The notes below the pieces were generated by a model. It was not told the origin of the DNA. It did not search any database and saw nothing but the letters and a program-made list of their open reading frames with translations. 32,662 nt of DNA from Peduovirus P22H1, in sequence record NC_049386.1. One strand, given 5' to 3'. The stretch's first letter is position 1. Every line of letters begins with the position of its first letter. A program made the translations under genes and the position numbers. Shown here piece after piece: positions 29,622 to 30,870 of the stretch.

Positions 29622-29954
29622 ATGGAGTTGCCTATGTTACACAGAGCCCTTCGTTTAATAAGGCAATACCATAAAGAGTCATTGGTTGATTTATCAACAT
29701 CTTTAGGTATTCCAAAAGAAAAAATAGTAGAACTCGAAAGTGGGGTTTGGTCGCCTACAATTGATGTTTTACAGCGTTACGCCTCCCATTTCGATATGCC
29801 GGTATCTTCTTTAGTATTTTTTTCAGAATCGTTAGGTACGCAGGGGCGTTTATCTAAGCGTTTCCGTTTAAATTTAGCTGGTAAAGTATTAGATGTTATT
29901 GAGTGGGCGAATAAGAAAAATGAAAAGACGAATAAAACTCAAAATTTCCACTAA
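29622..29954 (+). CDS. XRE-family helix-turn-helix DNA-binding protein
   Basis: 110 aa; HTH pattern LRLIRQYHKESLVDLSTSLGIPKEKIVELESGVWSPTIDVLQRYASHF; directly upstream of and overlapping the RT ORF. Confidence 0.55.
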   Translation: MELPMLHRALRLIRQYHKESLVDLSTSLGIPKEKIVELESGVWSPTIDVLQRYASHFDMPVSSLVFFSESLGTQGRLSKRFRLNLAGKVLDVIEWANKKNEKTNKTQNFH

Positions 29955-30870
29955 AAATAAATCTTACGATATAATTGATTCGCCGTTTTATAAAATGAGA
30001 AGTAAAAGGAAATTGGCTTCTTTATTGGGGGTTGATGTAGGGGATTTATCAACCTTAAAAAAAGATGAAGGCAATTATTCTATTTTTGAACAGTTATCTA
30101 AAAACGGAAAGCCACGTAAGATACAAAAACCATTAGAAAAATTAGATGTGGTGCATACTCGTATTGCAAGTCTGCTATCGCGAATTACCTTGCCAGATTA
30201 TCTACATTCTGGAAAGAAGGGATGTTCTAATGTTACTAATGCTAAAATCCACCTTAATAATGAAAGGTTGATGACAACCGACATCAGGGCTTTTTTTCCA
30301 TCAACTACTAGAGAAATGATATTTTCATTCTTTTTTTCTGTTATGAAGATGTCATCTGATGTTGCGGATGTATTATCGTATATATGTACTTGCTATGGGC
30401 GTTTGCCTACAGGTAGCAGGATTAGTATGCCTCTTGCATATTTTGCAAATTCAAGAATGTTCGGAGAAATACACCAACTTTGTAATAAACTACACGTAAA
30501 TATGTCTGTTTATGTTGATGATCTAACTTTTTCAGGACAAAACGTTAATAGACTATTTTGTTCAGTGATTCGCAAAATAATAAATAAGCATGGTCATGTG
30601 ATGCATGCGGATAAAACAAAAATTTATAGTAGAGAAAAGCCTAAGTTGGTAACAGGTGTTATTGTTTTGGGCGGTTCTTTAAAAGTCAGGAATAAGCAGC
30701 ATCTTTTAATGTCTCAAGAAATTGAATATTGGAAAATGATAAAGGATGCAGCGTGTGCAAGAGAAACTCATACTGCCAAAAAGTTATTTGGACGATTGCA
30801 TTCTATGGGGGTAATTGAACAACGTTATAGATCAAAGGTGCTTACATTAAAAGCAAGTACTGCACTTTAA
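29893..30870 (+). CDS. Reverse transcriptase, retron-type
   Basis: RT motifs read directly in the translation: RKIQKP, NAKIH (NAxxH), DIRAFFPST, LPTGSRISMPLAYFAN, YVDDLTFSG (YxDD), KLVTGVIV (VTG); about 300 aa with no long C-terminal extension; alternative starts at 29920 and 29995. Confidence 0.8.
   Translation: MLLSGRIRKMKRRIKLKISTKNKSYDIIDSPFYKMRSKRKLASLLGVDVGDLSTLKKDEGNYSIFEQLSKNGKPRKIQKPLEKLDVVHTRIASLLSRITLPDYLHSGKKGCSNVTNAKIHLNNERLMTTDIRAFFPSTTREMIFSFFFSVMKMSSDVADVLSYICTCYGRLPTGSRISMPLAYFANSRMFGEIHQLCNKLHVNMSVYVDDLTFSGQNVNRLFCSVIRKIINKHGHVMHADKTKIYSREKPKLVTGVIVLGGSLKVRNKQHLLMSQEIEYWKMIKDAACARETHTAKKLFGRLHSMGVIEQRYRSKVLTLKASTAL

Follow-up and report, generated by a model that had tools for sequence, protein, structure and literature searches.

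The genome of Peduovirus P22H1 (sequence record NC_049386.1), whose 32,662 nucleotides (nt) form the window analyzed here, carries a cassette near its right end that we assign by homology to the Type VI retrons. It is composed of four parts, a structured RNA, a 51-residue predicted toxin, a helix-turn-helix (HTH) protein, and a reverse transcriptase (RT), with the coordinates given in Table 1. A sequence-only reading of the window had pointed to a retron-type RT encoded by a P2-like phage. Both the RT and the carrier hold up, positions 1 to 25000 sharing 97% identity with Peduovirus P24C9 and with Escherichia phage 10W, but the reading was incomplete, as it left the retron type unassigned and missed both the small-protein gene and the structured RNA.

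The open reading frame (ORF) from which that reading started (29893..30870, plus strand) is present, and the four motifs named for it, NAKIH, DIRAFFPS, YVDDLTFSG, and VTG, can all be read directly in the RT translation. The residues N107, A108, H111, Y198-D201, and T245-G246 are invariant across 22 homologues, which are 46 to 81% identical. In the profile search, the top match is PADLOC RT_VI (E=1.1e-105, 351 bits, profile positions 1-278 of 279), followed by RT_III-A with 152 bits, i.e., 200 bits lower. The best 25 of the 38 PADLOC matches are retron families throughout, with no Abi, UG, or DRT profile among them. Sequence matches in the PDB are exclusively retron RTs, with Ec86 at the top. 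Pfam reports RVT_1 alone above the gathering score, in line with the earlier statement that no intron maturase or endonuclease domain is apparent, and the NCBIfam retron families stay below their thresholds. Pfam and NCBIfam scans of the RT show no group II intron or diversity-generating retroelement (DGR) family at E<=0.01, and the only non-retron RT family that they return is Drt3a with 16.6 bits versus a cut-off of 200; Rfam finds no intron RNA in positions 28900-31100. About 70 amino acids (aa) follow the VTG motif, and the protein, with 316 aa in total, has no C-terminal extension, so that the earlier separation from Abi-P2, AbiA, and AbiK stands. The profile matches confirm the gene as a genuine retron reverse transcriptase.

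Three start codons had been considered for the RT (29893, 29920, and 29995), together with a possible overlap with the HTH gene. The start is 29920, since the PGAP calls, the homologue lengths, and the N-terminal alignment agree: PGAP annotates a 951-nt RT gene in all five Escherichia coli alleles, the majority of the database homologues have 316 aa, and the N-termini of the 22 diverse homologues align starting at MKKRKKLKI. The overlap is real, with the HTH and RT genes sharing 35 nt in different frames. Type VI retrons are described to combine a clade 3 RT and a Cro/C1-type HTH protein of 91 to 110 aa, encoded upstream of or overlapping the RT gene (PMC7736814). The cassette is assigned to this type because its RT falls in RT_VI, nearly over the full profile length, and the upstream protein of 106 aa falls in HTH_VI. 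The HTH protein retains R7, whose mutation renders the characterized Retron-Vpa2 toxic (10.1101/2025.10.22.683967).

In Type VI retrons, the HTH gene is further preceded by a structured RNA and by the gene of a small toxic protein (SP) (10.1101/2025.10.22.683967; 10.64898/2026.04.27.721009). The SP gene of the window has the Shine-Dalgarno sequence AAGGAG at 29430-35, and its product is composed of a polar, Gln-rich N-terminus, a Lys patch, an amphipathic helix rich in Trp, Ile, and Leu, and an acidic FEGGDE tail, with a hydrophobic moment of 0.6 to 0.8 over residues ~20 to 46. In 20 loci, that of the Vpa2 SP among them, the corresponding position is occupied by ORFs of 46 to 55 aa that share the N-terminus, the Lys patch, an aromatic-rich amphipathic helix, and an acidic tail, and the window SP aligns with the SPs of the 19 other, syntenic loci. 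These belong to Escherichia, Yersinia, Dickeya, Acerihabitans, Xenorhabdus, Shewanella, Vibrio, Marinomonas, Acinetobacter, Alcanivorax, Marinobacter, and other genera. The exact SP protein is found on at least 1000 contigs, and it lies outside the 75- to 79-aa clusters cl2075, cl2760, and cl3272. By analogy with Vpa2 and with Retron-Sen3 from Salmonella, the SP would be toxic.

The SP gene is preceded by a structured leader of about 270 nt (~29173-29441), which we predict to be part of a hybrid RNA (hyRNA) made up of a noncoding msr-msd region, a riboregulator, the SP coding sequence, and a conserved 3' box. The hyRNA of Vpa2 has a length of about 470 nt (10.1101/2025.10.22.683967). The candidate promoter TGTTATGAT lines up with the -10 boxes of strong TTGACA-17-TATnAT promoters at distant loci and would place the transcription start at about 29173; a generic promoter and terminator scan gave nothing above background and did not pick it up. 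Six distant loci (L012, L013, L014, L016, L017, and L018) show the palindrome GTTCGC(A/T)A(A/T)(A/T)(A/T)GCGAA(C) just upstream of the hyRNA promoter and near the TTGACA-like -35 box, which it overlaps in L016. The palindrome is perhaps an operator for the HTH protein, and its counterpart in the window is only an AT-rich imperfect inverted repeat at ~29110-29125.

Downstream of the 5' arm of the arm-closing helix, the first msr-like stem-loop pairs GGGTA with TACCC (29207-11 with 29216-20) and the second GGAAAG with CTTTCT (29223-28 with 29235-40). The long hairpin behind them differs in sequence and length between loci and maps onto the region of Vpa2 that yields the multicopy single-stranded DNA (msDNA). 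It is followed by a stem-loop carrying the first of two direct repeats and by the G-box, probably the priming-proximal, a2-like arm. In the riboregulator, the anti-Shine-Dalgarno strand TCCTTATG (29371-78) pairs with CATAAGGA (29427-34) and covers the AAGGAG of the SP gene, and an inner hairpin joins 29387-95 with 29417-25. The ribosome-binding site is sequestered in a stem whose pairing is preserved by compensatory changes, a feature reported for both Vpa2 and Sen3 (10.1101/2025.10.22.683967; 10.64898/2026.04.27.721009). The stretch composed of the C-box and AGTTTCAAT is invariant among the E. coli alleles though it is noncoding, and it is kept across genera; G29611 might, speculatively, be the priming guanosine.

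Table 1. Features of the retron cassette and the adjoining gene in the window (MFE, minimum free energy)
Feature	Coordinates	Strand	Size	Basis or remark
Second candidate -10, TATATA	29125-29130	+		upstream of TGTTATGAT
Candidate hyRNA promoter, extended -10 TGTTATGAT	29158..29166	+		read from sequence; putative
Predicted hyRNA	29173..29620	+	~450 nt	ends approximate; fold, conservation, covariation
Arm-closing helix of msr-msd, 5' arm TGAGAT	29186..29191	+		pairs with ATCTCA 29365-29370
Two short msr-like stem-loops	29207..29240	+		covariation
Long variable hairpin, candidate msd stem-loop	29247..29310	+		present in every fold
Stem-loop CGAACCCTT/AAGGGTTCG	29313..29339	+		direct repeat 1 in loop
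Direct repeat 1, GGGCGAC	29323-29329	+		loop of stem-loop 29313-39
G-box	29346..29351	+		long-range partner of C-box; pairing in MFE fold
Arm-closing helix of msr-msd, 3' arm ATCTCA	29365..29370	+		directly adjoins anti-Shine-Dalgarno strand
Riboregulator hairpin	29371..29435	+		inverted repeats I14, I16; MFE folds
Direct repeat 2, GGGCGAA	29380-86	+		riboregulator internal loop
SP gene, predicted toxic effector	29442..29597	+	51 aa	strong Shine-Dalgarno; PGAP call WP_001754918
C-box CTCCCT (29604-09), then conserved AGTTTCAAT	29604..29618	+		3' arm of long-range helix
HTH gene, Cro/C1-type	29634..29954	+	106 aa	PADLOC HTH_VI 7.2e-30; PGAP start
Retron RT gene, Type VI (clade 3)	29920..30870	+	316 aa	profile and homologue comparison
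NAKIH	30238-30252	+		RT translation
DIRAFFPS	30280-30303	+		RT translation
YVDDLTFSG	30511-30537	+		RT translation; YVDD 30511-22
VTG	30649-30657	+		RT translation
FRG-domain gene	30979..32343	-		Pfam FRG 2e-21; PADLOC candidate PDC-S15 7e-98; convergent with RT

The region of the hyRNA folds with a z of -5.3 versus shuffled sequences. In the five E. coli alleles, which are 67 to 100% identical overall, the SP coding sequence is less conserved than positions 29180-29441 and than the 25 nt that follow its stop codon. The structure was named from the window sequence and tested on the unedited MAFFT alignment of 22 loci from many genera, where 79.5% of the cells are paired compared to 70.0 +/- 0.8% after shuffling (0/500 reach the named structure) and 42 to 54% with the 3' partners slid. 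The covariation score is 0.357 for the named structure, 0.212 for the shuffled, and at most 0.176 for the slid alignments, with compensatory changes on both sides in 35 of the 49 pairs. The two short stem-loops (29207-20 and 29223-40) are 98% and 94% paired, with compensatory changes in 4/5 and 3/6 pairs, the stem-loop 29313-39 is 87.5% paired (7/9 pairs), and the G-box/C-box helix is 87.9% paired, complementary in nearly all loci, and changed on both sides in 6/6 pairs. The arm-closing helix occurs in six sequence types that stay complementary across genera.

A best-pairing test with +/-3 nt of freedom versus shuffled sequences is almost powerless for helices of 5 to 6 bp and was therefore replaced by the fixed-alignment count and a cis/trans permutation that allows register slips (5000 permutations). 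In the latter, both short stem-loops, the stem-loop 29313-39, and the inner hairpin of the riboregulator give 0/5000 each, the anti-Shine-Dalgarno helix 1/5000, and the arm-closing helix 107/5000. The cassette hence includes a structured noncoding RNA as described for retrons, with a z of -5.3 and covariation over the 22 loci, and its role as the template is predicted.

Other searches and pairings of the leader were discarded. An Rfam scan of 28900-31100 at E<=10 returned chance snoRNA matches only and no family for the leader RNA, and a tRNA/tmRNA scan of the whole window returned none; the T-arm-like GGTATTCGAACCC belongs to the conserved stem-loop 29313-39 and not to a tRNA. The longest long-range inverted repeat, I3 (29122-37 with 29604-19), which also appears in one MFE fold, was rejected as the closing helix for two reasons: the O139 and C5 alleles do not preserve its 5' arm, and this arm probably precedes the transcription start. 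The FEGGDE terminus of the SP is encoded by GAAGGGGGTGATGAG (29583-29609 region), whose G-run could pair locally with the C-box; this local G-run is missing in distant loci that retain the C-box. This arrangement suggests alternative RNA conformations, with the C-box bound to the local G-run rather than the distal G-box.

The closest characterized relative by sequence comparison is Retron-Vpa2, for which the identities were measured against a Vibrio parahaemolyticus locus (L088). The SP of this locus has 55 aa with K15, I39, F43, and F45, and its HTH protein has R7; since these are precisely the residues that were mutated in the preprint, L088 is Retron-Vpa2 or a near-identical allele; the Vpa2 RT accession WP_069548583.1 is not among the cluster members listed. 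The preprint (10.1101/2025.10.22.683967) gives the catalytic mutation of Vpa2 as YADD to YAAA; in the RT of L088 and in all 22 aligned Type VI RTs, the motif is YVDD. Both loci show the same order of structured RNA, SP, HTH, and RT, with the RT being 54% and the HTH protein 50% identical and the SPs belonging to the same family. The RNAs share the two short 5' stem-loops, the long variable hairpin, the stem-loop whose loop holds the repeat, the G-box/C-box pair, the anti-Shine-Dalgarno hairpin, and the second repeat. In contrast to the window copy on a P2-like phage, the 6-kb locus L088 shows no phage genes.

A second characterized relative is Retron-Eco12, a Type VI retron of E. coli that is phylogenetically related to Vpa2 (10.1101/2025.10.22.683967). 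Both protect against lambda-vir, and the baseline msDNA of Eco12 is undetectable (10.1101/2025.10.22.683967). The window allele, likewise an E. coli Type VI retron, is the commonest of the five E. coli alleles (60 of the 100 carrying genomes) and may be Eco12 itself, for which the preprint text gives no sequence or accession.

In Vpa2, two conserved 7-nt direct repeats lie in the msd loop and in the riboregulator loop (10.1101/2025.10.22.683967). Zhang et al. propose that the msDNA copy of repeat 1 anneals to repeat 2 and opens the ribosome-binding site (10.1101/2025.10.22.683967). L088 has GGACGAA twice, and the window has GGGCGAC and GGGCGAA at the corresponding places. The two repeats change together across 15 lineages (similarity in cis 6.13 versus 5.49 in trans, 2/5000), the pair being GGTGAC twice in Alcanivorax and a Legionellaceae locus and GGCGACA twice in Acinetobacter.

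The msDNA of Vpa2 has 86 nt, with a 63-nt form that lacks the 5' 23 nt, and the repeat lies inside that 5' part (10.1101/2025.10.22.683967). On L088, this description fits a template whose end lies immediately 5' of the G-box (~1907 back to ~1822) and does not fit one that ends beside the arm-closing helix. The classical a1/a2 reading, with the template start just 5' of ATCTCA at 29365, was set aside because on Vpa2 the repeat would fall outside the 23-nt 5' extension, contrary to the preprint. By analogy, the window template would extend over ~29249-29344 and yield an msDNA of ~96 nt, longer than that of Vpa2 because the long hairpin is longer. With this template, the G-box/C-box helix would be the priming-proximal one, which agrees with the remark of Zhang et al. 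that the hyRNA 3' end "wraps back", resembling a1/a2 (10.1101/2025.10.22.683967).

A more tentative idea, which we regard as possible and on the whole rather doubtful, is that of a circularly permuted template, where the pseudoknot-like G-box/C-box pair, and not a terminal a1/a2 helix, places the primer, with the priming guanosine (candidate G29611) lying 3' of the toxin coding sequence. If this is true, reverse transcription would start at the tail of the toxin message, coupling msDNA synthesis to the opening of the ribosome-binding site, and the P2-borne E. coli allele would be a natural system for deciding between the conflicting models of Vpa2 and Sen3.

To the observed family assignment, gene boundaries, covarying RNA structure, repeats, and genomic context, the characterized relatives would add the production of msDNA, its trigger, the toxicity of the SP, and the order of events. 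With good confidence, we take the cassette to be a complete Type VI retron carried as P2-like cargo and acting in the manner of Vpa2, with a hyRNA, msDNA-triggered release of the SP, and abortive infection. A single promoter near 29160 would drive the hybrid RNA of ~450 nt, whose 5' part would serve as the msr-msd template, whose middle hairpin would hide the SP ribosome-binding site, and whose 3' end, the C-box, would fold back onto the G-box beside the template; the overlapping HTH and RT genes follow. An infecting phage that brings single-strand-annealing or exonuclease recombination functions, or one that blocks RecBCD, would cause the msDNA to build up. This DNA of ~96 nt, copied from ~29344 back to ~29249, would carry the complement of repeat 1 in its 5' part, which would anneal to repeat 2 in the riboregulator, making the SP ribosome-binding site accessible. 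The SP would then arrest or kill the cell before the invader finishes its cycle. Abortive-infection defense that depends on the RT, SP, and noncoding RNA is demonstrated for Vpa2, Eco12, and Sen3 (10.1101/2025.10.22.683967; 10.64898/2026.04.27.721009), and by analogy the defense of the lysogen by abortive infection is likely to be the function of the cassette.

The sequence-only reading had further proposed that a lack of msDNA on a gel would speak against a retron. Vpa2 and Eco12 defend without detectable msDNA in uninfected cells (10.1101/2025.10.22.683967), and since absent msDNA is therefore expected for Type VI, this argument should be dropped.

Several points weigh against a mode of action like that of Vpa2. 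The pairwise similarity of the window SP to the Vpa2 SP is weak (E=0.012, with 51 versus 55 aa), and the two window repeats are identical at 6/7 positions only, where Vpa2 has two exact copies. The G-box/C-box helix, which as an MFE pair joins the 3' side of the SP gene to the msr-msd arm in the predicted single hyRNA, shows no significant covariation in the flexible-register permutation (1059/5000); it is conserved rather than covarying, as is the equivalent long-range stem in Sen3 (10.64898/2026.04.27.721009). The promoter, the transcript ends, the priming guanosine, and the msDNA limits are all predicted positions. In addition, the order of events in Vpa2 is not universal, because in Sen3 the synthesis of single-stranded DNA (ssDNA) and SP is constitutive and control acts post-translationally (10.64898/2026.04.27.721009), and as Sen3 also sequesters the ribosome-binding site, the hairpin cannot decide between the two.

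The cassette might accordingly function like Sen3, with constitutive SP and ssDNA, the HTH protein as a protein antitoxin, and a loss of RecBCD that frees the SP post-translationally, leaving msDNA and SP translation unchanged. Sen3 acts by abortive infection triggered via lambda Red and RecBCD (10.64898/2026.04.27.721009), and it shares with the window the SP-HTH-RT order, the Cro/C1 HTH family, the upstream noncoding RNA with its sequestered SP ribosome-binding site, and the long-range pairing of this RNA with a box past the SP stop codon. Its host Salmonella is closely related, and Sen3 works in E. coli (10.64898/2026.04.27.721009). However, Sen3 belongs to the cl2075 lineage, with a different RT sublineage and SPs of 79 aa, and the window SP of 51 aa lacks their N-terminal extension of ~25 residues. 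The RT resembles that of Vpa2, the direct repeats of the Vpa2 type are common to the loci, and Eco12, in E. coli, has no baseline msDNA, as Vpa2 and not as Sen3. We thus consider a Sen3-like mode unlikely, though it is the main rival. Sequence alone cannot separate the two models, and the Vpa2 model is the best-supported one, being favored by the RT and HTH similarity, the short SP together with the shared repeats, and the absence of baseline msDNA in Eco12.

Retrons of Type IV and of Type V (Retron-Eco6/Ec48 and Retron-Sen1) share RT clade 3 with Type VI (PMC7736814) and act as guards of RecBCD or recombination. They differ in their effectors, which are a 2TM protein and a cold-shock protein with other components, and in their abundant msDNA that serves as an antitoxin, with no effector gene inside the RNA template of the RT.

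The cassette is cargo of the defense hotspot at the right end of the Peduovirus genome. The variable locus of P2 between gene A and cos/Q is known to carry tin, old, the P2-EC30 RT, and retrons (Rousset et al. 2022, PMC9122126). In the window, gene A (replication endonuclease) ends at 29025, and an E. coli chromosome has an identical cassette with gene A on one side and the portal/terminase genes on the other. The cassette thus has the same phage-genome position as other hotspot cargo, by which a prophage arms its host against competitors, and differs from it in its genes. The coding part of the cassette has a G+C content of 33 to 40%, compared to 53% for the phage backbone. Among 5426 complete E. 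coli genomes, 100 carry the cassette, 60 of them with at least 99% identity, 28 with 80 to 90%, and 12 with 60 to 80%. Related copies are found in a Klebsiella P2-like phage (80% identity), in a Yersinia P2-like prophage, and in non-phage islands, one in E. coli C5 near yeiP and one in Dickeya beside QatBCD genes. At the Dickeya locus (L089 3727-5951), genes for QatB, a QueC-like protein, and a TatD domain (Qat defense system) adjoin the retron, which therefore lies within a defense island.

Next to the RT gene lies a convergent FRG-domain gene, and the two might form one defense system in which the FRG protein would be the effector. PDC-S15 is a candidate defense family, and the non-P2 locus in E. 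coli C5 has a further FRG-domain gene (L006, 7644 onwards) at a distance of about 3 kb from its Type VI retron. We nevertheless consider such a system very improbable, as the same cassette adjoins unrelated genes in other P2-like prophages, Yersinia, Dickeya, and Vibrio, the DNA homology between the alleles ends at the RT stop codon, and PDC-S15 is a separate candidate family in PADLOC. Because unrelated genes replace it in the other P2-like prophages, the FRG gene is regarded as separate cargo and not as part of the retron. The 108-nt gap between the two genes contains an imperfect hairpin, CCCCGTAG...CTGCGGGG, at 30926-30950, which could be a two-way terminator; it has no clear T-run and was not reported by the terminator scan.

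It is equally hard to regard the cassette as inert cargo, decayed or silenced and without a current function. The empty promoter scan would fit this view, but the three reading frames are intact with family-typical lengths and intact catalytic residues, the RNA helices are held by compensatory changes in a leader more conserved than the coding sequence of the SP, and the exact RT is found on about 1000 contigs. Least credible is a non-retron defense RT (Abi-P2, AbiA/AbiK, or UG/DRT) without a templating RNA of the retron kind, for although the same P2 locus is known to hold an RT of another family (Odegrip et al. 2006, as cited in PMC9122126) and the very weak Drt3a match exists, the retron families that make up the best 25 of the 38 PADLOC matches, the exclusively retron PDB matches, the invariant NAxxH and VTG motifs, the short C-terminus, and the covarying msr-msd-like RNA upstream all contradict it.

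The finding is correct and ordinary, a widespread Type VI retron recognizable from databases in a known phage hotspot, and it reveals no new kind of system, Type VI being already described and common in E. coli. RefSeq labels the genes "reverse transcriptase family protein", "helix-turn-helix domain-containing protein", and "hypothetical protein"; the three genes and the structured leader should be annotated together as a single Type VI retron with a toxin gene. With this cassette, a phage carries an E. coli-native copy of a retron type for which two conflicting models exist, and the cassette would represent a temperate phage arming its lysogen against competitors with recombination or RecBCD-inhibiting functions.

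In the prophage of E. coli WP7-S17-ESBL-01, an ISEc12 element of the IS21 family with a frameshifted istB lies between the FRG and portal genes (L001 9865-12166), and apart from this insertion the prophage is otherwise identical. Both ends of the window carry a Nextera/Tn5 adapter, GTCGGCAGCGTCAGATGTGTATAAGAGACAG (1-31 region) and CTGTCTCTTATACACATCT (32644-32662 region), and the phage sequence starts with GGGGAAAGCAC, which we take to be the inner portion of the cohesive end (cos) of P2. With adapters flanking both ends and GGGGAAAGCAC beginning the phage sequence, the contig resembles a complete linear genome as packaged in the virion, in which the retron lies close to the right end.

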